From the NCBI GenBank assembly GCA_024679065.1, contig JAGIQG010000003.1, positions 28,272,001 to 28,336,000 of the forward strand: DNA of 64,000 nt, read 5' to 3'. A program made the translations under genes and the position numbers. The notes beneath the pieces are model-generated. The model saw only the letters and a program-made list of their open reading frames with translations. It was not told where the DNA came from and searched no databases. Shown here in pieces: positions 8,173-63,659 of the stretch. Source of the DNA: Sphyrna mokarran (Eukaryota). Position 1 is the stretch's first letter. Each line of letters opens with the position of its first letter.

Positions 8173-8785
8173 GGGGTGAAATTGGTCCATGGTAGCAGTG
8201 CAAACCAATCTCCCATCCATTGACTCTGTCTACACTGACTGCTGCCTCAGAAAAGCAGCTGCATAATTAAGGACCCCGCACATTCTCTCTTCCACTTTCT
8301 TCTATCAGGAAAAAGATACAAAAGTCTGAGGTCACGTACCAATCGACTCAAGAACAGCTTCTTCCCTGCTGCCATTACACTTTTGAATGGACGGACCTCG
8401 TGTTAAGTTGATCTTTCTTCATACTGTAATTATAACTGTAACAATATATTCTGCATCCTCTCCTTTCCTTCTCTATCTACAGTATACGTGCAAGAAACAA
8501 TACTTTTCACTGTATACATTTGACAATAATAAATCAAATCATCTCAAAGCAGGCTCAAAGAGAATTGGAGCATGAACGCTTTTTATTGATATTCACGTAA
8601 TGAAGTTCAAATTCATTTTCATTTTGGGACATTTGCTTTCTATTCTCACTGTCACTTTTGTTTGAAATTGAAAGTCCTGACAAGGCTTTCCAAATCAATG
8701 GCAAATAAAAACTGCTGCAGTGAAAAATTGGGTGCTGCTTTGCTACAAGTCTGTTTTGTGCTGCTATTGTAGACTAATTTCACCA
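8173..8785. mobile_element. MITE interrupted by a Rex1 3' end
   Basis: TIR ggtgaaattggtc ... gactaatttcacc. Confidence 0.6.
8203..8542 (+). mobile_element. Rex1/Babar LINE 3' end
   Basis: cgactcaagaacagcttcttccc (RLKNSFFP); tail gacaataataaatcaaatc; homologous to the minus-strand 20617-20960. Confidence 0.85.
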
Positions 8786-9683: not shown

Positions 9684-10738
9684 ATACCACTAGACAGTAA
9701 GCATCATAAATGATTAATTTGATATGCTCATTTCCTTCGATCATTATTCAGAACTCAGCCTAATATTTTGGTAGGTTGGCAGTCAATCAAGGAAGCTTTT
9801 GGCAGCTTAATGTGTAACAAATTATAAATATGATAGCATATATGAATTAATCTTCTACATTCTGCAGCTTGTTTTCTTCAAACTAATACTTAATTGTAAT
9901 CCAATTATTGTTTGTACTTTTTGGAATGGGAACATTTGCAAGAATATGCTGAATGTACACGTGTGTATGTTGTAGAAAAGAAATTTATTATTAAGATGAT
10001 TCTTAGTTGATTTTGTAACCCAGACTTTTTTTAGCAGAGGTAAGCCAGATCAGAAGTTGGATGGTGTGACAACAGCACCCATTCAATCCATAATGTGCTT
10101 CATCAATGTATATTTTTAGAATCAGTGTCATTTGAATAATGAGCTCCAGTAAATTGGGAATTTGCCCATGGCAGTCAAACATTTTATATGAATACAGAAT
10201 TTAAAGTTATTTGCTGTTTATAAGGACAAGCATCATGATTTGGAATATTGTAAGCTAATCCAGAAAAGTCAATAATCCAGATTTTTCCGGTCAGTGGTGT
10301 TTGCCGTTCAGTTCAAGAAAAGCCATCATTAAAGATTTATTGGGCTCTACAGCACAGACTTCCTCTTTTCAGTGTAATTTTGAATCTACACATTCATCAG
10401 CATATTATTTATCTGGTACAAACACACTTCTTTTGCTTCATTTAATCTTTATCGCCATCATCAAACTTTGGATTTGTTTCTCTATCTTCCCTTTGGGGGA
10501 ACATACTATGACTATACTTCCAACATCTCTTTTTTAAATGCCTGCTAACCCTTGTTTCTAATTTATCTGGACCAGAACCATTCTTACTCCATTGTAGTTG
10601 GCATTCCCCCAATTAATTATTTTTACTCTGGATTGCTACTTATTCTTTGCCATAGCCATCTAAACTTTATAAGACATTGATCACTGTCCGTTGAGTGTTC
10701 CTCTCCTGATCTATTTAGCCTGCCTCGTTCCCAAGAAC

Positions 10739-10848
10739 TCAGTAAAGGTTTACAACACCAATTTTAAATCCAACCAATTTATTTGACCAATTTATTCGTC
10801 ATTTGCCTGACGAAGGCCATAGAGTCGAAAGCTCGCGAATTTACTATC
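10739..10848. mobile_element. Penelope-like pseudo-LTR fragment with an inverted segment
   Basis: cagtaaaggtttacaacaccaattttaaatccaaccaatttatttga followed by an inverted ribozyme-bearing segment; same family as 36.1 kb and 63.3 kb. Confidence 0.8.
10801..10840 (+). ncRNA. Minimal type I hammerhead ribozyme motif
   Basis: ATTTGC-CTGACGA-A-GGC cataga GTC-GAAA-GC-TC-GCGAAT: stem I, CUGANGA, stem II, GAAA and UC cleavage site. Confidence 0.8.
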
Positions 10849-11144
10849 GGGAAGCGGGGCTGACCAACAATTGGAAGGCCAACAATGTGGGGCCACTGTA
10901 TATGCACCAATCTTGACGCTGACAGATCAATGCCTGCAAAGTGATCAGCTCAGCGCGGATTTCAGCCTTTCCGGTGGGAAACAGGTCCCGCTCTTGAAAT
11001 TTAATGATATTCACATTGGTGGTCTCTGCAGTGCAAAGTGTGTGGGAGATTCTTCTCTGAATTCCCACTGAAAAAAATAGTGTGAATTACTACAGTTTTC
11101 ATGTAAATTCAACACTTAGAATGTTTTTGGGAGAATTCAGACCA
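10849..11144. mobile_element. One end of the Harbinger MITE family (cf. 51953-52847 and 47330-47480)
   Basis: ctgcagtgca...gaattcccactgaaaaa...tgggagaattc; reverse complement of ~51953-52200. Confidence 0.8.
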
Positions 11145-20616: not shown

Positions 20617-22565
20617 TTTTTGATTTAATTTATTATTATCACACGTATTTGTGTATAATGAAAGGCATTGTTTCTTGCACACTATATAGACAAAACATAC
20701 CATTCATAGAGAAGGAAAGGAGAGAGTGCAGAATATAGTGTTACAATCATAGCTAGGGTGTAGAGAAAGATTGACTTATTGTGAGATACATCCATCCAAA
20801 AGTCTGTTGGCAGCAAAGAGGAAGCTGTTCTTGAGTCGATTGGTACATTATCTCAGATTTTTGTGTCTTTTCCCAATGGAAGAAGGTGGAAGAGAATATG
20901 TCCAGAATGCGAGGGGTTGATTATGCTGGCTGCTTTTCTGAGGCAGTGGGAAGTGTAAACAGAACGAATGGGTGGGAGCTGGTTTGAATGATGGACTGGG
21001 TTTCATTCATGATGCTTTGTAATTTCTTGCGGTCTTGGACAGAACAGAAGCCATATCAAGCTATGATACAAATAGAAAGAATGCTTTCTATTGTATATCT
21101 GTAAAAGTTGGTGAGAATTATTGTGGACATATCAAGTTTTCTTCACCTTCTGAGAAAGTAGAGGCGTTGGTGGGCTCTTTGAAATATTGTGTCAGCATGA
21201 GGATACCAGGTCAGTTTGTTGATGATCAGGCCACCTAAAAACTTGAAGCTGTTGGCCATTTCTATTTCACCCCATTGATGTAGACTGGGGCATGTTTACC
21301 TTTACACTTCCTGAAGTTAATGACTATCTCCTTTGTTTTGTTGACATTGAAGGAGAGATTATTGTCATTTCACCAATTGACCAGATTCTCTATCTCTTTC
21401 CTGTATTTCATCTCATCATTGTTTGAGATTGACACACTATGATGGTGCCATCAGCCAACATGGAAATCGAGTTGGAGGGGAATTTGGCCACACTCCTTGG
21501 CGTATAAAGAGTATAGCAGGGGGCTGAGGACACAACTTTGTGGGCACCGGTGCTGAAGATGACCATGAAGGAGGTGTTGTTGCCTATCTTTACTGATTGC
21601 AGTCTGTGGGTTAGGAAGTTCAGGATCCAATCGTAGGGCAAGAGGCCAAGGCCTGTTCTGTGCTGTAATGTTCTATGTTCTATGTTCTATGAGTTATGTA
21701 GGAATAATGGTGTTGAATGCTGGGCTGTAGTTGATCATTGGGAGTATGAAATCGGTTCTTTGGTATCTAGATGATCCAGGGTTGAGTGCAAGCCAGGGAG
21801 ATGGCATCTGCTGTGGACCTGCTGCAGCTGTAGGCGAACTGTAGTGGATACAGACAATCTGGAGGCTAGAATTGATTAGTGCAATGACTACCCCTTCGTG
21901 ATGATAGGTGTCAGAGTCACCGGACGATAGTCATTAAGGCACGCTGCTTGGCTTTTCTTTTGTAGCAGGATGATGGTTGTCTTCTTGAAGCAAATAGGAA
22001 CCTCAGATTGATATAAAGAAAGGTTGAAGATGTCTGCGAGTACCCATGCTAACTGATCTGCGCAGGATCTGAGTGCCTGTGGGGTACTCCATCCGGGCCA
22101 GGCACTTTCCATTGATTGACCTTCAAGAAGGCAGCTGTGACATCTGCAGTGATGACCTTGGATGCAGGTTCATCCAAGGCTTCCTGAGTGGAGGGCATGG
22201 TCTCGCTGACTTCTTGCTCAAAACGGGCATAGAATGCATTAGCTCATCAGGGAGGAGTGCGTGGTGCCAGCAATTTTACATGCCTTCATCTTGTAGCCTG
22301 TTATGTCCTGCAGACCTTGCCCTGGTCAGCAGGGGTCGGTGTAGTTTGTCTGGGACTGTAGCTTGGTCCAGTATATGGCATTTTTGATGGATCTCCTTAG
22401 ATCATATCTGGTTTTCTTGTACAATCAGGGTCACTTGACTTAAATGCCTCAGACCTAGACTTCAACAAGTAGTGAATATCCCTGTTCATCTATGGTTTCT
22501 GGTTGGGAAACACATGGATTTGTCTCTTTGGAACACAGCCTTCACAATTACTAATGAAGTCAGTT
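20617..22565 (-). mobile_element. Rex1/Babar LINE, 5'-truncated and decayed
   Basis: LRSCADQLAWVLADIFNLSL...CLNDYRPVTLTPII; DWILNFLTHRLQSVKIG; same 3' tail as 8203-8542. Confidence 0.92.
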
Positions 22566-34405: not shown

Positions 34406-34740
34406 TTTTGATTTGATTTATTATTGTCACATGCATTAGTATGCAGTGAAAAGCATTGTTTCTTGCGTGCTATACAGACAATGTATACAGTACATAGAGA
34501 AGGAAAGGACAGAGTGCAGAATGTATTGTTACAGTCATAGCTAAGGTATTGAGAAAGATCAGCTTAATACAAGTTAGGTTCATTCAAATGTCTGATGGCA
34601 ACAGGGAAGAAGCTGTTCTTGAGTCAGTTGGTTTGTGACCTCAGACTTTTGTATCTTTTTCCTGATGGATTAAGATGAAAGGGAGCATGTCCAAGGTGTG
34701 CGGGTCCTTAATTATGCAGGCTGCTTTTCCGAGGCAACAG
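34406..34740 (-). mobile_element. Rex1/Babar 3' end
   Basis: tttgatttgatttattattgtcac...gggaagaagctgttcttgagtc. Confidence 0.85.
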
Positions 34741-35256: not shown

Positions 35257-36083
35257 AAATAGTAAATGATGCATTTCCACAGTGCCATTATTATTTCTTT
35301 AGCATTTAAATTGCACAAGTATATTGCACAATTGTTAGTTAATTCATATTCTGTTAGTGAATGTTGCCCATTGAATATCCTACTTTTTGAGTCTCCTATT
35401 TATATACAGAGCCATGGTTAGTAATAATAAGAAAAAGGCAATGTCTTTCAGCAAAGTGTTTTCTTTCACTTTACAAAAAGTATCATGGGTGTTGGTGAAA
35501 ACAATTACACAATGAAATAACATCCAATTCTGTCAATGTTACAATAAGCATTTAAAACAAAGTTGAAGAAGCACCGTAACTTCTGACCAGAACAGTTAGA
35601 ACTTCTGCTGTGGGTCAATTTCAACTGCAGGTGTAACTTCTTTTAAAATGCCTCTTTTGTGTTGATGCAGTTTGAGGTTTGCAATGACATTGAAGTGGTT
35701 GTATAACTTGAAAATCAGGTCAACAATCTGTGATTCAGGTGCCCTGAAGAGAATGATGTGACACCAATTTGAGTAGATAATCTTACATCAGTTAGAGTGA
35801 GCACCATGTAAAATGTATCTCCTATCTGTTGTGAAGCCACAATTTTAATACGTCCAGGAGGTCCACTAGATTTCCTGGAAACTTTCTAAACTTACCTTGT
35901 GTTGTTTTTAATGATAGGCGATAGTGGATATTCCTGTCCTCTCTCACACAACATACAGCTCCAAGAGCCTTTGTTACAAAACTAAAAGTGTAGGTTTCGG
36001 TTAGCTGTGTAGTTCTACTCTGCCATTTGTACATCACAATCTACAGATGCCAGATTCCTACATTGCAGGCTGTGGTATAACCA

Positions 36084-36219
36084 CAGTAAAGTTTTACAAC
36101 ACCAATTTTAAACCCAACCAATTTATTTGATAGTAAATCCGCGAGCTTTCGACACTATGCGCCTTCGTCAGGCAAATGCAGTGTTCTGATCTGCAGAGGC
36201 ACTCATATCCACAGACAGC
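36084..36219 (-). mobile_element. Penelope-like short insertion with 13-bp TSD
   Basis: ATAACCACAGTAA at 36077-36089 and 36220-36232; body matches the 63.3 kb unit. Confidence 0.85.
36137..36177 (-). ncRNA. Minimal type I hammerhead ribozyme motif, intact core
   Basis: Minus strand: ATTTGC-CTGACGA-A-GGCGC ata GTGTC-GAAA-GC-TC-GCGGAT. Confidence 0.85.
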
Positions 36220-37578
36220 ATAACCACAGTAACAGACTTCCTTAGTGACCAGTTCAGAACAGAGTTTTCATACCTGAGTTTTTACTGATTGAAGTCACTC
36301 AAGTCCTGTCCAAATGTGCTGGGTATATTCCTCCAGTTCTTCTGGAATTTGGCTGGTTGAAAATAATTATTGTGCCAAAAAGAATAATAATCACATACAT
36401 TTTGTTTATGGCTTGAGGTATAGTAAAAAAATGCTAAACTTTAAAGACTGCCAAATAGAATCCCAGAGGAGCTTTTCGATGTGAATCATTCCTTGCAACT
36501 TGCTCTGTGACTGACGTGAATTCATGGTCTAGTTGACTGGTCTGTAAACTAACTTATAGTTTTATGAAATATGAATAGCTTTGTATTCAGCAAGTTTCTA
36601 GGAGTTGGTCTTATTCTCTTGCTTGTGAAACAGCAAGTTAAAGGAGAGTTGTTCTGATGCAATGAACAACCTCAGAAAGTACGGAGACTGAAAAGTCGAA
36701 ACCAGTTTGATGAGAGAAAATCTTTTCAAGAGGAAAAAGGAATGAATTGTGAAATTCTTTGTTTTGGGAGGACCTGGCTTTATACTTTCAGCTATGGTAC
36801 ACCTGGTAAAGCATTTCTTCTGACAGCCAAGAAAACCAAAATATTCAAATCAGGCAAAGTGTTTACTTGGCATCAGTGTCCAGTGGGCCTGGTAATATAT
36901 AATCTACTCATTATTTTCAAATCAAATCCACAATTTTATTTACCACATTGCATATATTGATATGTATAGGTTTAGAAGCCAATTAACATTTACAAGTATG
37001 TGATCTATGTTTTATAAATAGTTCATATATCATATCCAATAAAAATATTACATTTCAATTTAAGTTCTAAGAAAACTATTAGGATGACCTACAAATTCAT
37101 CCCAATTAGAAAAAACAGCCAGAAGGCAAAAAACTCTCAATATCGCCACACTTATTTTCTGTCCCTTTTTTCAATGACCAGGGGCTAAAAATTTTTTTAA
37201 AAAGTCTATATATGAGTGCTTTGTATTTGTCTGACAAATTATACATGCTTGGCTGCTCCATTGTATCTGTCCCATATACTAGACGATATAATAAAGAAGT
37301 AGCAGCCAAACATTACTCATATACTTAATTTTTAAGCAGTTAAAAGAGAACTTGAAGAGTTCAAAAGGACTGAACTAAGGTAAAGTGTTGCTTGATGATA
37401 TCACAATATGTGTAAGATGTTCTTGTCAACCTTTTCCATTGTAAATTCCAATATCCATTGGCAGCATTCATGAAGAGAGGAATTTGAGTTGAATATTAAT
37501 ATTTTGAGTGGAATATAACTCTGGCAAGCTGGTGAATTAAGTTCTGAACAAGAGTTATATTTGATTCAAAACATTAAA

Positions 37579-40175: not shown

Positions 40176-42711
40176 CAAAGAACAAAGAACAAAGAGCAAC
40201 ACAGCACGGGAAAGAGGCCCTTCGGCCCAACGAGCCCACGCCGCCGTCCTAATGTCTTAATGACATATCCTTGACTTTAGGCTATGCCTATTGTTGAAGA
40301 TTCCCATATAGGGACCAATATAGGGACAATTTGTTACCCAATCAGCCTAAGAGCACATTTTTGGGATGTGGGAGGAAACCGGAGCACCCGGAGAAAACCC
40401 ACGCAACCACGGGGAGAACTCGCAAACTCCCGCAGACACAGGCCCAAATCCATGTGTCTGCACAGCAACAGCGATAGTCTCTGAGCTGTCATGTTGCCCA
40501 TCAGATGGTCCAGTTTAAGCATACACTAACGACGTGAAGCACTAGGCCACTCCTGAAGCAACATCCAAGAGCAGCCCTCGCACGACCTGCCGAATGCATG
40601 CGCCTTGTTGGTCAACAAGGTGGACCGAATAGCCTGCAGAAACAAATAAGACTTAATTAAACATGCTAAAAAAAACTAAGACATTCCCGAGACGAAACTA
40701 AAAGATAGTCTACTACTATTTGGTCCTCCCGATATTCAAACAGTCCTGCTATATCCCTCTATCTGCAGACCGCTCATGTGGCTGTCCAAGAGACCCTTAA
40801 ACAACCCTAGCATGCCTGCTCCCATCACCTTACTCGGCAGTGCATTCCACACCCCCACTACCCTTTGTGTGAAAAACTGGCCTCTAATATTCGTCTTATA
40901 CATAGCCCCCCCTCACCCTGAGCCTGTGACCCCTCGTTCTATCCATTTCTAATGATGGAAAAAGCTTACCACCATTTACTCTATCTATACCCCTCATAAT
41001 CTTATATACCTTGAAAAGATCCCCTCTCAGCCGACGTCTTTCAAGGGAAAACAACCCCAGTGTTTTCAATCTTTCCTCATAAGACAGCCCTTCCATACCA
41101 GCAGCATCCTGGTAAATCTCTTCTGCACTCTCTCCAGGGCCTCTACATCCTTCCTGTAGTACGGCGACCAGAACTGGACGCAGTACTCCAGATGAGGCCT
41201 AACCAACGTTCTATACACCTGCAACATCAGACTCCTACTCTTGTATTCTATATCCCTTCCTATGAAGGCTAATATACCATACGCTTTTTTTTACCACATT
41301 CTCCACCTGTACTGACACCTTCAGAGACTTGTGAACTTGCACCCCCAGGTCTCTCTGCGTCTCTATACTCCGGATAGTTTTACCTTTTATCCTATAACTC
41401 CCTTCTACATTATTCCGGCCAAAATGCATCACCTCGCATTTATCCAGATTAAATTCCATTTGCCATCTATCTGCCCAATCTACCAGCCTATCTATGTCAT
41501 GTTGTATTGCCAGGCACTGCTCCTCAGTACCCGCCAATCCAATCATCTTAGTGTCATCACCAAATTTGCTGATCACACCACCTACCCCCTCTTCCAAGTC
41601 ATTTATATACACCACAAATATAAGGGGTCCTAGTACAGAGCCCTGTGGCACACCACTAGTGACAGACCTCCAGTTGGAAAAAGAGCCTTCCACTACTACC
41701 CGCTGTCTCCTCCTCCCAAGCCAGTTCTCAACCCATCTACATACCTGGCCCTGTATACCATGCACCTTCACCTTTTCTATCAGCCTACCATGAGGGACCT
41801 TATCAAACGCAAATCTTTGTCTCTTCTTTGGACACAGGGGAGGTCCCAGAGGACTGGGGGATTGCAAATGTAGTACCGTTGTTTAAAAAGGGTGAAATCC
41901 ACATAGACGACATCAACGGCTTGTCCTTCATCAACCGTTTTTGTCACCTCTTCAAAAAATTCCACTAGATTCGTAAGGCACGACCTTCCCTTAACGAAGC
42001 CATGCTGCGTATCCCTGATCAGATCGCAGCGCTCCAGGTGCTCATACATCCTGTCCCTGAGAATCCTCTCCATTAGCTTACCTATAACTGAAGTCAAGCT
42101 CACCGGCCTATAGTTTCCTGGGTTATCCCTCTGACCCTTTTTAAACAACGGTACTACATTTGCAATCCCCCAGTCCTCTGGGACCTCCCCTGTGTCCAAA
42201 GAAGAGACAAAGATTTGCGTCAGAGGCCCAGCAATGTCATCTCTCACCTCCCTTAGCAGCCTGGGATAAATACCATCAGGCCCCGGAGCTTTATATGTCT
42301 TTATGCTACCTAAAAGCTCCAACACTTCGTCCCTCGTAATGATTATTTCCTTTAACGGGTCCTCAAATTCCTCAAAGCTGGCATCAGACATCAGGCCCCT
42401 CTCCTGCGTGAATACCGACGCAAAGTATTCATTCAGGATCTCCCCCATTCCCTCAGGCTCTAAGCATAGTTCCCCTCCTCTGTCCCTGAGAGGTCCAATC
42501 TTCCCTCTAACCATCCTTTTGCTCCTTACCTAGGAGTAAAATGCCTTAGGATTTTCCTTAATCCTACCTGCCAAAGCCATTTCGTGGCCCCTTTTTTGCC
42601 TTTCTGACACCCCTTTTAAGATCCCGTCTACACTCTCTATATTTTTCCAGCGCTGCCTCTGTCCCCAGTTGCATGGATCTAACATACGCCTCCTGCTTCT
42701 TCCTGACTCTC
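40176..42711 (-). mobile_element. Young 5'-truncated CR1/HER1 LINE (RT domain) with a long SINE-containing 3' UTR
   Basis: KAPGPDGIYPRLL, NYRPVSLTSV, QHGFVKGRSCLTNL, AFDKVPH, SGVPQGSVLGP, KFGDDTK; (TTTGTTC)n tail; possible TSD CTCTC at 40172-40176 and 42707-42711. Confidence 0.97.
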
Positions 42712-42931: not shown

Positions 42932-44129
42932 ATGGATCTGGGATTTACAGATTTAGAGCTGGCTATCATAGTGGCAGCTGAAGAGAAGGAGGTAATTCAG
43001 GAGGTGTCCAGGAGCAGCCAGTGGCAGGAGGGCAGGAGGCTGCCACTTATGTGCAGGAGGTGGGAGAGCAGCCTCCCAAAAGGGTGACCAGGAGAAGGAG
43101 GATATGGGACAATCAGAATGTACCAACCAGAACATCCTTCAAGGGACTGTCAGAAGTTATGTGCCATTGCTGGCTTTGCCTCTCCAAGGACATGGTCCGC
43201 CACCTGTATGAGGTGCTCGCCCACCTGGCATCTGAGAGGAGGGATGGATAGCCACTGCCAGCTGAAGTTAGGGTGATGGCAGCCCTTGACTTCTTAAGCG
43301 ACATGGTCATTTCAGGCACCCAGTGGTGACCTGTGTAAAATCCCTCACGCCTTTGTCTACAGATGTGTTCGCCAGGTGACAGATGCCTTGTTCACTGGGT
43401 AGGCCAATACATACACTTTGATGTTGGACAGGACCAATAAACGGCGCTGGCTGTCGGCTTCGCAGTCATTGCTGGGACGTCCCATGTCCAAGGGACAGTG
43501 GATGGGACATATCGCCCTCTAGTCCCACCGAGATGAGGGCAACCATTCATCAAGTGAAAGAAGTTCCACTCCCTCAATGTCCAAATCATTTGCGATCACT
43601 GGATGATTATCACGTGAATCTGTGCACGCCACCCAGGGAGTGTCCATGGCATCTTTGTGCTGAGGCAGCTGGACATTCCTGGGCTCTTTGAAAACCAGAC
43701 CAGGTTACTGGGCTGGCTCATGGGGGACAAGGGCTACCTGCTGAGGTCATGGCTGATGTTGCCAGTGTGGAGGCCTGCGATTGAGATGGAGGTCTGCTTC
43801 ATTAAGGCCCATACTTCCACCTGGTCCACAGTAGGGTGTTGCATAGACCTGCTAAAGATGTGATTTCATTGCCTGAACTGCTCTGGGAATGCCCTGCAGT
43901 ATGATTCAAGGAATGCCTCCCACATTATCATCATCTCCTGCATTCTGCACATCTCGCAGCAATGAGGAGACCATCTGGAGGAGGTGGAGGACGAGAAGGA
44001 TTGTCACCAGGCAGAATGGAGGACCTGCTATATGAGGAACCAGAGAATGGAGGGCAAGCGACAATGGCAGAGGTCTGGCAAGGCAGGGCAGCAAGTGGGG
44101 CCCTGATAGCAGCTGCTTTATCTAACTGA
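42932..44129 (+). pseudogene. Harbinger (HARBI1-like) DDE transposase, disrupted
   Basis: Manual translation gives VQGTVDGT, KKFHSLNVQIICDH, ARHPGSVH, GWLMGDKGYLLRSWLMLP; several stops and frameshifts. Confidence 0.92.
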
Positions 44130-46523: not shown

Positions 46524-47782
46524 CTTCCTGATGTGACCGGTTGTGTGTCCATCATTGAAGATTATATACAGCTCTGGATTGTTAAGGAAGTCCAAATGTC
46601 GTCAGCCTGGGCCAACAATGGGTCTGTTAGTTAAAATTCCTTCTGAGAAATGCACAGGCAACCTGCTTTCAACAGAGGGTGAGCCATCTCCAACAGTACT
46701 GATTGTCAATCAACAAGGTACTGTCTCCAAGGCGGGGTGCAATGCTCAAGGCTGTCACCTGATAAGGGGAATGCTTGCAGGCAGAAGATGTGCATGTTAG
46801 CACAGCGCTATTTGTGTGCAAGGCAGCAGTGAAGCCAGTGCTGTGGGTGTGAGGGATGGTGGGGCAGGAGGTGGGGGGCAGCCAGCCAGCCAGATTCAGG
46901 TCACTGGAGGAATGGGAAGGGCAACAATGTTCGGGTCATTGGAGAATGGGGAGGGAGAACGATAATGTCTGGGTGAAGGAGGCATGGAGAAGTCAGTGAT
47001 ATCCAGGTCACTGGGGGATGGGAAAGCCAGCAATGTTTGGATCAATGGGGGATGGAGAGGCAAGGAAGGCAGCGATGTGCTTGGGGGTGGAGATTGAGGG
47101 AGTGGAGAGGCCAGCAGGCCACCGATGTGTGTGGTAGGGAGACGGGGGACGGTGGTAGTAGGGGCTAGTAGGTTGGTGATGTGTGCTAGTGTGGGGAAGG
47201 GTTGTGGCAGTGGGGGGGAGGCCAGCAGGCCAGCCATGTGTGGGAAGGAGGGTAAGGTAGAGGCCAGCAGGCCAGTGATATGCTTGGGGGCTGGGGAAGA
47301 GACAGTCGGTCAACTGTGCCAATTTCAGCCTCTTCAGCAGGAATAGGCCCTGCTCCCAGACTTCTGATTTACTATAGTGCACCCTGCAGTGCACAGAATG
47401 TGGGAGAATTCCCACTGAAAAAGCCAGTGCTGTTTATTCCAGTTTTCATGTGATTCGACACTTTTTTTTGGGGAGAATTAAATTATTTTTGCAGAATTTT
47501 GGCCCTTATCATAAAAGTGTAGGTATTATGCATTACACTATGATTCCTTCTGCAATACAAAATATATTTATAGCATTCTCAACAGAGGCAACAACTATGG
47601 TAGGTAATTACAATAAGACTCATGCTACAGGTACTAAATTTGTTTTTATAGTAATTAGTTATAGTTAAAAAACCATATCTACAGCAAATTGTGAAACAGA
47701 AAGTGGAATCTTCTGGACTCAGTCTATGTTGGAATGGTGGGAGCCTCTGCAGATCAGAAGTCCGATTTAGTGATGGGTGAGC

Positions 47783-61213: not shown

Positions 61214-63248
61214 ACCTTTTAAAGTTGGGAGTTGCTGAATAGAATTAGAAAAGAGAATCCTGGCTGACTTGTTCCATTTTCTGACCTCGAGCATTTCACT
61301 CCTGCAAAATTTGGCAATGTTTTCCATTTATTTAAATTTATAAACACTGAATGCAACAGGATTGAAATAAAAATCCAAATGGCTTCATTTTATCCAGTGA
61401 CTCAAATCGTTAAGTTTTTCAGGCAGTATCTAAGTGCTCTGCTTTGTCATTAGGGGTTAATTGTTCTAATTAAAATCTAAGTGATTATTTATATAGATGG
61501 TACTTCAATAGAGTTCAGTGTTTTGTCAGACAGTGATGTAATTCATTGCAGCACTGGGACAAACTTTCTATGAACTTTCCCACTATCATGTTTTCTCACT
61601 ATCTATTTCTGTTGAAAGCTTTGCTATTCATGGCTACAGGTGTTCCCTCACCTGGATCATATTGCTCATAGCAACGTAGAGAATCTAAAGCATAATTTAG
61701 ACCTTATCCCCTTCAAACTGGAAGAAAAAGATTTATCAGTATCAGTAGAGCTTTGGATTCTGATACTCCATATTTAAAATTGATCAAAAATGTAGGTACA
61801 GACAAGGTGAAGTAAAAAATATAACATAATTAAAACAAAATAGAAAAATGGGGAAAGCTAGCATCATTAACACAATGAAAAGATATAGTATAGCCAGCAG
61901 ATATCAGAGATCAGTGTTGAGGATCACCAGGGAATGGTCAATTCTGTACTTTATAAACAAGTACAAACAAAGTTTATATAGTAACATGGTTCCATTCCCT
62001 ATAGAACACCAGGCGGGAAACTGGGCCAATCAGAAGAGTGGGTGTACTGGATGCAGAGCATCTTCAGTTGGAACTAGAGAGGTGCTTATGTTTGGTCAGA
62101 TCCTTAATATCGTTATATTAGTTTAATAAACCCATTGTTTGGAACCACACGGAGTTGCCTCCAGTTATTCCAGTTTATTAAATAGCCTTTGAAAACAGAT
62201 AATTGCTTTTGTTTCCTGGAGGTGTCTTACTTTTAGGTTATAACCAAGACTTGCAGATAAAAATTCCAGATCATGACAGAGACTGAATACTCAGATATAT
62301 AGATGCTGGGAAGATCAGATGTATGAATTTCACTGGACCACCAAAGGATCTGGGCACAAACATATTAAGTGGATTGGTGGAGATATTAGATATTGGCAAA
62401 ACACTTGCTCCCTTTTAGCAAATATGAGATATTCACAATTGGGCATGGTGACATGCTTCCTTTTGGATTATTAGCAGGCAACATAATTATTTACACCATA
62501 AATGTGCAGAAGGAGAGTGTGTAGTGTTGTACAAACAAAATGGCACCATTTATTTTGATGTTGGCCTGGCACTCTCTATTAATCTATGTCAAGTCTTGTC
62601 ATCTAGATTACTTAAGAGGAGAGAGACAACATAGGTATTTATTTAAAATCTAATTTTTAAAATATTTTTAAATCTTCAACAAAAAATTAAAGTGAAGGAA
62701 TGAGATTCCACATTTATGAACATTATCTTTTAGTTTCACTGTAGTCACTTGATAGTAATTTAGATTTACCATGCCATTAAAATTTAATAACATTGGAATG
62801 GACAAGCCCTAACTTTTTCTGATGAACTGTCATTTACTGCCTAAGTAAAGAAACTTCACATTCTTGTGTGTATTTCAATAGCACACCTCTTGACAAATGG
62901 CAGCTTCAGGCAGAGCAGGGCAAGTTTGTCTGCAATTTCTTGATCTCCACATTTAGTGCTCATGTGTGGCCAGTGAAGATTGATTCCTATTTACACCTAA
63001 ATAACAATGAGTGCTGTTTGTCTCTGTTTTTTCAATAGCAAAATATAGTTGTCTGAATGTTCCCCAAAGTGAACTCTTGTAAAAAAAATTAATAGTTTTT
63101 CTTTCTTCAAGTTGTTGAGCTGTGATTATATTGAGATCTAATATTATAATCCTCAGTATATTAAATTTATTCTGCTAGATTAATAGTATTGCCCATTATA
63201 CTCAATATTGACTTATTTATTGGTGTTAAATATGTTAATGTTCAAATA

Positions 63249-63580
63249 GTGGTCATGATGTAGAGATGCCGGCGTTGGACTGGGGTAGTAAGAACTCAGT
63301 AAGAATTTAGCAACACCAATTTTAAATCCAACCGATTTATTTGATAGTAAATTTGCGAGCTTTCGACACTCTGTGTCTTTGTCAGGCAGAAGAACATTCA
63401 GTAAGAATTTAGCAACACCAATTTTAAATCCAACCGATTTATTTGATAGTAAATTTGCGAGCTTTCGACACTCTGTGTCTTTGTCAGGCAAAGACACAGA
63501 GTGTCGAAAGCTCGCAAATTTACTATCAAATAAATTGGTTGGATTTAAAATTGGTGTTGCTAAATTCTTACTGAATGTTC
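63249..63580. mobile_element. Penelope-like pLTR array: two direct units (102-bp period) plus one inverted unit, 12-bp TSD
   Basis: Units at 63296-63388 and 63398-63490; inverted copy at 63489-63580; AATGTTCAAATA at 63237-63248 and 63574-63585. Confidence 0.9.
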
Positions 63581-63659
63581 AAATACATAGACTGTACTTT
63601 TACAAAATATTAAAAATGTAATTTTCAACAACTGACATCAGACATAGAAGAAGTTATTA

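Follow-up and report, generated by a model that had tools for sequence, protein, structure and literature searches.

A 130-bp insert at 36 kb of the window, by which we mean the whole 64-kb stretch of DNA analysed here, is most likely a 5′-truncated 3′ pseudo-LTR of a Penelope-like element (PLE) and not a new ribozyme-only element. We put the probability at about 0.84 that it is an abortive, 5′-truncated retrotransposition product of an endonuclease-bearing PLE, probably of the Neptune type, the Neptune-type linker having been seen in a relative (metagenome contig L017). To judge from the sequence, the family would have every testable PLE feature bar physical linkage to an ORF with telomerase-like reverse transcriptase and C-terminal GIY-YIG, to which L017 and a second contig, L013, provide only an indirect link. 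The features seen in the window are direct and inverted pseudo-LTRs with a one-sided tail (63249–63573), an inversion at 10.75 kb, a short target-site duplication (TSD; 13 bp with an empty site at 36 kb, 12 bp at 63.3 kb), a fixed 3′ end and variable 5′ truncation.

The insertion and its empty site

The 13-mer ATAACCACAGTAA is present as a direct repeat at 36077–36089 and 36220–36232 (spacing 143). In contigs of the other-organism runs X2 and X8, position 36076 is joined to 36220 with a single copy of the 13-mer, the joint skipping 143 letters of which 13 fit either side. Because this empty site has only one copy, the sequence between the repeats (36090–36219, minus strand), delimited by the contig joint and by homology to its sister copies, is a 130-bp insert with a true 13-bp TSD made at insertion, and the insertion event postdates the splits from X2 and X8. 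A solo repeat left by recombination between the 13-mers is ruled out on the same ground. In run X3 the contigs end at 36087 and restart at 36220. The orthologous flanks of X2, X3 and X8 diverge by 6.2–7.8% from the window. The comparison covered 35400–36900 and four of 17 runs, namely X1, which may be the source of the DNA, and X2, X3 and X8 from other organisms; the runs with a small share (X4–X7 and X9–X17) were left out.

An earlier interpretation from the letters alone, below called the sequence-only reading, had proposed an insert of about 130 bp with a 13-bp TSD and without coding sequence, and both proposals are borne out, the former by the X2/X8 empty site and the latter by the finding that no ORF of at least 75 amino acids overlaps the insert. 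It had also noticed that the element end, CAGTAA, overlaps the TSD; indeed, the last 6 nt of the left TSD copy (36084–36089) are identical with the common 3′ end of the element, and CAGTAA was already in the target before insertion. The right copy is placed by the repeat together with the contig evidence. Two perfectly complementary 7-nt arms around an ATA loop make the target (36070–36086) a small inverted repeat, and the duplication begins at the loop. The 5′ end of the insert (36209–36220) is complementary to the left flank (36064–36075) in 10 of 12 positions.

The hammerhead motif

Minimal hammerheads are defined by the lack of helix III, a palindromic 15.2–16.2 pair, an unpaired base between positions 9 and 10.1, and the pair G10.1–C11.1 (Cervera and de la Pena 2014, PMC4209133); compensatory covariation within a family and self-cleavage, either as a dimer or aided by protein, are further traits of this kind of motif (PMC4209133). 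By this definition a minimal type-I hammerhead motif lies at 36137–36177 on the minus strand, with predicted cleavage between 36143 and 36142. Stem I has 6 bp (two of them G–U), and the core CUGACGA is followed by one unpaired extra A, by a stem II of 5 bp (GGCGC/GUGUC, two G–U) and by GAAA-GC-UC; in place of the missing helix III there is a palindromic AGCU. The AGCU, the extra A and the G10.1–C11.1 pair are present in all four full-core units of the window. A strict minimal-hammerhead descriptor matched the window twice (10807, plus strand; 36171, minus strand) and each of 40 dinucleotide shuffles not at all, whereas the bare core pattern by itself is at chance level in the window (9 found versus 7.45 expected). 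Downstream of the hammerhead follows AATAAA (36122–36127, minus strand), which is common to the PLE-linked contigs L005, L006, L013 and L017 and was part of the pattern by which they were found. At 47743–47759, in opposite orientation, 17 nt are identical to a piece of the insert's upstream sequence (E 0.002); this match was missed by the profile search and is either chance or another element fragment.

The 36-kb hammerhead is intact in sequence only. The sequence-only reading, which had called an intact ribozyme at 36177–36137, holds for the letters, but folding energy does not support it: the hammerhead is the minimum-energy structure neither of the monomer (z −0.02) nor of a two-copy RNA, and in Rfam the motif was unmatched at the gathering score (whole window) or up to E = 10, the two matches around the locus (E 6.5–6.9) being of chance level. 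Differences in stem II among the copies had been taken for maintained pairing, but they are weaker evidence than had been supposed. Between the 36-kb and the 63-kb copies the 3′ strand is unchanged and the differences are of A–U versus G–U, hence one-sided and not compensatory, and the 10.8-kb stem is down to 3 bp owing to a 1-nt gap and a mismatch. Two-sided changes were found in loci outside the window only, and these had been selected for pairing. The core consensus CUGANGA...GAAA...UH fits the 36-kb and 10.8-kb copies, but not the 63-kb locus, where the cores are broken: both its full-core units read CUGACAA and have lost G8, a base whose change abolishes cleavage in an Anolis element (PMC11167929).

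Family size and ends

A profile of the copies gave six matches at three places in the 64-kb window, in agreement with the three loci first reported. Extrapolated, this density corresponds to about 1.3 × 10⁵ loci per 2.8 Gb (95% range 2.7 × 10⁴–3.8 × 10⁵), a crude figure from one window. Contigs on the stretch number 10,775 in X1 and 523, 576 and 5 in the other three runs, in which sequence divergence also depresses the counts. Summed contig depth, which is a sign of abundance and not a copy number, is up over the insert only (1 × 10⁶–3.7 × 10⁶ versus 16–18 in the flanks). The family is very abundant, as had been supposed, and the 10,775 X1 contigs support this.

The loose contig ends that were listed pile up at 36089–36097 with mixed sequence beyond, and many copies therefore share this 3′ end. 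Over 36089–36152 a related subfamily was observed that shares the 3′ end but has another stem II sequence; it is common in X2 and X3 and scarce in X8.

The 5′ side is more variable. The 36-kb copy includes element sequence upstream of the hammerhead (36178–36218, minus strand) that is matched by other contigs running past its 5′ end. Among the contigs listed, 33 that are loose behind 36213, and that may or may not extend over the hammerhead, match to about 36218 and then continue into a common sequence (agreement 0.74), and others bridge the hammerhead to 36192–36195 (pieces 36097–36195 and 36114–36192). The family sequence thus appears to run on 5′ of the 36-kb copy, and because the listed contigs continue beyond its 5′ end this copy seems to be a fragment of a longer sequence. 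It extends 42 nt further 5′ than the other units in the window. In four of the five units the 5′ end falls at stem I or within the core, at positions that differ among the copies; this clustering may mark a point where reverse transcriptase stalls or folds back, or it may be the sign of a short donor. The predicted cleavage site is covered by all five units (four with full core plus the truncated unit C described below), and because they span this site their templates were uncleaved.

The sister copies at 63.3 and 10.75 kb

The 63.3-kb insert comprises 325 bp between 12-bp direct repeats (63237–63248 and 63574–63585) in the order tail, unit A, unit B and inverted unit C. The tail (63249–63296, minus strand) extends 48 nt past the common 3′ end, is found on one side only and aligns with the end of the PLE locus L017. 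Unit A (63297–63389, minus strand) and unit B (63392–63492, minus strand) are pseudo-LTR stubs identical over 92 nt, both with the core CUGACAA; together they form a 102-bp two-copy tandem, the only tandem in the window. Unit C (63489–63573, plus strand) begins within the hammerhead core and ends at the common 3′ end. The mirror image of unit B takes in unit C and the initial 7 nt of the TSD, so that the two arms (63392–63483 and 63489–63580) are 92 nt long, 99% complementary and separated by a 5-nt loop. That unit B includes seven bases of the target points to fold-back on DNA, but slippage during replication at the palindrome, once inserted, accounts for this just as well. Since the broken core, common to all three units, also makes a short complementarity at the centre of the palindrome, the donor seems to have been cleavage-dead already before insertion. 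Units A and B share one base that is absent from C, a difference that would fit later CpG decay in C.

At 10.75 kb a single stub is split into two halves of opposite orientation with a near-exact breakpoint. The 3′ half (10733–10786, minus strand) reaches from AATAAA to the common end plus 7 nt of the tail and is followed by a local duplication of 10–11 nt (10787–10796); the inverted 5′ half (10800–10848, plus strand) carries the hammerhead with intact core. No TSD was found at this locus. Within 10720–10862 the flanks of the stub are, by eye, near mirror images over about 13 nt. The target site may have been a hairpin. The arrangement resembles, as we see it, LINE-1 twin priming; a literature search on twin priming and PLEs returned by title nothing on PLE insertions.

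The link to PLE proteins

A pattern composed of core, stem II gap, GAAAGCT and AATAAA was searched in viral and metagenome contigs. In its exact family form it had no match in the metagenome contigs; the degenerate form had 52 matches outside the window, one viral and 51 metagenomic. With a stem II of at most 3 bp, 48 were dropped as chance, among them L030, in which no PLE ORF was recognisable by eye. The other four, which have a stem II of 5–6 bp, all adjoin PLE protein remnants: in L005, L006 and L017 an endonuclease ORF is located upstream of the hammerhead on the same strand, and in L013 an inverted reverse transcriptase (RT) fragment lies by the hammerhead. As L013 and L017 are the same element, the four matches amount to three independent cases.

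The L006 endonuclease is recognised by Pfam as GIY-YIG above the cut-off. The fragments in L017 and L005 are unrecognised by Pfam, and their identification rests on BLASTP; for that of L017 the identity with a named PLE-type protein of shark is 48% (E 6e-50). In a comparison set of 326 proteins, itself gathered starting from L017, the L017/L013 proteins are best matched by named shark proteins (endonuclease 46–48%, RT 64–66%). A CxxxxCxxC linker is found in L017 and also in the named shark proteins. A CX2-5CxxC linker between RT and endonuclease marks Neptune elements and is shared by Nematis (PMC8557442). At the DNA level the 3′ end plus tail of the 63-kb copy can be aligned co-linearly over its full length with the final 84 nt of L017, which lie outside the search pattern; the similarity is modest, 3 of 1967 random window segments scoring as well, and of the three loci compared L017 matches best, the 63-kb tail query having no significant match in L005 and L006. 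The two metagenome contigs (L017 1–1470; L013 1–1050) contain a PLE whose RT/endonuclease is shark-like and whose 3′ region is long; both a minimal hammerhead and a tail are present. In L013 the RT fragment is inverted relative to the same 3′ region, and L017 has inverted arms of 109 nt.

In the window itself, 127 frames of at least 75 amino acids contained no PLE RT or endonuclease ORF, and 49 shark and turtle PLE-type proteins had no tblastn match. Peptides from the repeat and tail gave only short chance-level matches among 152 proteins and none among the 49 shark and turtle proteins, and none of 82 candidates was a short protein resembling the N-terminus of P0005.

Other repeats in the window

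The window has a GC content of about 40%, and the only strong protein-family matches among the 127 frames are to RT fragments and to one DDE transposase fragment (DDE_Tnp_4), located at 884–1792, 40836–42529 and 43618–43860. We take the RT fragments to be CR1-type LINEs and the host to be a cartilaginous fish. CR1 is described as dominating shark genomes (PMC8455134). A CR1-driven SINE is rejected as the nature of the insert, which by eye ends without a CR1-like 3′ end, poly-A or tandem-repeat tail. Within an RT remnant there is a perfect inverted repeat of 87 bp (41807–41893 and 42134–42220). Another repeat, unnamed and about 330 bp long, occurs in three copies that are 73–78% alike (8201–8541, 20618–20986 and 34406–34740) and may represent the 3′ end of a LINE or SINE.

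Alternative explanations

The family could be a discrete non-autonomous PLE derivative with a short or internally deleted, SINE-like master, which would have its own transcript and be moved in trans by a PLE protein, units of 95–140 bp then being the normal form. Such derivatives with pseudo-LTRs have been described (PMC8557442), the clustering of four out of five 5′ ends at stem I or in the core would be expected of them, no ORF is linked to the family in the window, and X1 has far more contigs than its relatives, even if divergence lowers the counts in the latter. However, the 5′ ends vary, the 36-kb copy is 42 nt longer than the other units and the listed contigs run still further, and a structured RNA is a plausible point for a reverse transcriptase to stall or fold back, which is why we regard such a derivative as unlikely. 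The sequence-only reading had left the choice between a truncated pseudo-LTR, which the dispersed copies with inverted arms and a one-sided tail support, and a retrozyme-like unit, which they do not. Monomers of a non-LTR retrozyme would be cut from tandem transcripts by the hammerhead, circularised and reinserted. The type-I hammerhead, the lack of an ORF and a TSD of more than 4 bp agree with this (PMC7229834), as does the tandem at 63.3 kb, and a preprint counts minimal-hammerhead tandems among retrozymes, reports them from one chondrichthyan and derives them from pseudo-LTRs (bioRxiv 10.64898/2026.07.22.740005). Classical retrozymes, however, carry canonical hammerheads in head-to-tail arrays, minimal motifs being assigned to PLEs (PMC7229834), and 8 of 9 dimers tested in the preprint failed to cleave (bioRxiv 10.64898/2026.07.22.740005). 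The motif lacks the helix III loop of a canonical type-I hammerhead, which has a short helix III and loop 1–2 contacts, the insert does not end at the cleavage site, and the sole tandem of the window has broken cores, so that tandem units with complete hammerheads are absent from the window. A retrozyme is disfavoured also because every unit spans the predicted cleavage site, and we consider it very improbable.

Even less credence is due to a DNA-repair patch, in which microhomology-mediated synthesis, needing no enzymes of the element, would have filled a break with a fragment copied from an abundant repeat. The 6-nt identity at one junction, the hairpin-forming target and the partial complementarity of the insert's other end to the left flank would suit such an event, but the clean 13-bp duplication without loss of flanking sequence does not; moreover, the insert ends at the common 3′ end of the family, and a second locus with a 12-bp TSD ends at the same base.

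Proposed mechanism and significance

According to the preferred reading, truncated PLE retrotransposition, a PLE GIY-YIG endonuclease would have cut one strand of an AT-rich target, which at 36 kb is a short hairpin. From the resulting plus-strand end, CAGTAA, reverse transcription would then have been primed at the proximal one of two pseudo-LTR start sites, probably aided at 36 kb by 6-nt pairing with the RNA. Synthesis would have passed through the hammerhead, still uncleaved, and ended some 130 nt on, the TSD being fixed by repair. The same process, with two primed ends or fold-back, could have produced the sister loci at 63.3 and 10.75 kb with their inverted and tailed copies. In the Anolis PLE the protein nicks and extends both strands, and two RNA start sites bound the tail (PMC11167929). 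Two such start sites together with extension of both strands would account for the tail-less copies (36 kb, unit C) and for the tailed arm (unit A).

Priming by target microhomology, which had been proposed for the family, fits the 36-kb locus, where the CAGTAA that terminates the primer strand can pair with the element end; the geometry of the 6-nt match is right for pairing-assisted priming, and the hexamer has a frequency of 0.00044 in the window. The overlap concerns one locus, though, and was noticed after the fact. Six-base microhomology is found at one of the two TSD-bearing loci, and because the 63-kb junction has only one exact base of primer–RNA match (a 4-nt match follows after a 2-nt bulge) it cannot yet be taken for a family rule. 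The lone 36-kb copy is probably a passenger: since a minimal hammerhead needs a helix III partner, of which there is none nearby, neither cleavage in cis nor independent movement is likely for this copy.

A broader proposal, which we advance tentatively and think more doubtful than probable, combines pairing-favoured proximal priming, an inverted arm formed by cDNA fold-back and a cleavage activity that is dispensable in vivo, possibly with a dedicated non-autonomous mini-element. The new cDNA would fold back at the hammerhead and copy itself into the target DNA, so that the inverted arm would not come from antisense RNA; the seven target bases in unit B would be the clue to the fold-back, and the broken cores in a TSD-flanked insertion the clue to dispensable cleavage. 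If this proposal is true, perhaps 10⁴–10⁵ or more copies with empty sites in relatives form a natural library for the mechanism of PLE integration.

The element itself matters little, hammerhead-bearing truncated PLE ends being already documented in fishes, amphibians and reptiles. The insertion is of use as a dated presence/absence marker, younger than the split with 6–8% flank divergence, and the loci preserve clean junctions made in vivo, which bear on three aspects of PLE integration, namely the priming, the origin of the inverted arm and the need for the ribozyme.

Comparison with known systems

Minimal hammerheads are known from the pseudo-LTRs of metazoan PLEs, including Xena, Poseidon and Neptune of fish (Cervera and de la Pena 2014, PMC4209133), where they are mostly single motifs, probably of truncated PLEs, or opposite-strand pairs. 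The motifs in the window likewise lack helix III, have the palindromic pair, the extra nucleotide before stem II, a G–C first pair and a short stem I, and are dispersed as singles with some opposite-strand pairs (PMC4209133). Stem II, however, has 5 bp as compared with 7–8 bp in schistosomes, and the copy density appears far above the 4,000–9,000 copies reported for the coelacanth and Xenopus (PMC4209133). Under the names searched, two of the supplementary files of that paper contain no shark entry. Penelope LINEs have been noted in the whale shark, and a literature search that extended to sources other than subscription journals, Repbase and Dfam yielded no paper devoted to hammerheads of shark PLEs. 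The suggestion that the family is uncharacterised in this lineage may therefore hold for print, although elements of this kind, as documented truncated PLE ends, are already known.

With animal non-LTR retrozymes the family has in common that it is short and non-coding and has a type-I hammerhead with a proposed origin from PLE pseudo-LTRs (PMC7229834; bioRxiv 10.64898/2026.07.22.740005). It differs from retrozymes in that the window shows neither arrays of intact units nor ends defined by cleavage, that the ribozyme is minimal and not canonical, and that inverted arms and a tail are present.

Insertions of PLEs are characterised by partial tandems, an adjacent inverted copy, a one-sided tail and a short TSD (PMC8557442, PMC3846280). 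The copies described here resemble endonuclease-bearing PLEs (Arkhipova et al. 2013, PMC3846280; Craig et al. 2021, PMC8557442) in 5′ truncation, partial tandem, head-to-head inversion, palindromic centre and one-sided tail, and the TSD is of similar size (12–13 bp as against 8–10 bp). In contrast to them, the copies are without ORF, seven target nucleotides form part of the inner arm at 63.3 kb, and the tail has 48 nt, which exceeds the 30–40 nt given in these sources and thus counts against our reading.

The closest experimental counterpart is the Anolis Poseidon element PAc (Frangieh et al. 2024, PMC11167929), with which the family shares two 3′ ends separated by the tail, an AT-rich target and copies of uncleaved RNA. 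The family probably belongs to another clade, as the Neptune-type linker in its relative L017 indicates, and its 6-nt match differs from the priming in PAc, where reverse transcription begins at RNA sites that are not homologous to the target (PMC11167929); that such an overlap is not predicted by the homology-free model also speaks against our reading. In the Anolis system the substrate in vitro is RNA that has not been cleaved, and mutation of the hammerhead does not prevent insertion (PMC11167929), with which the uncleaved templates and the broken cores at 63 kb would be in good accord.
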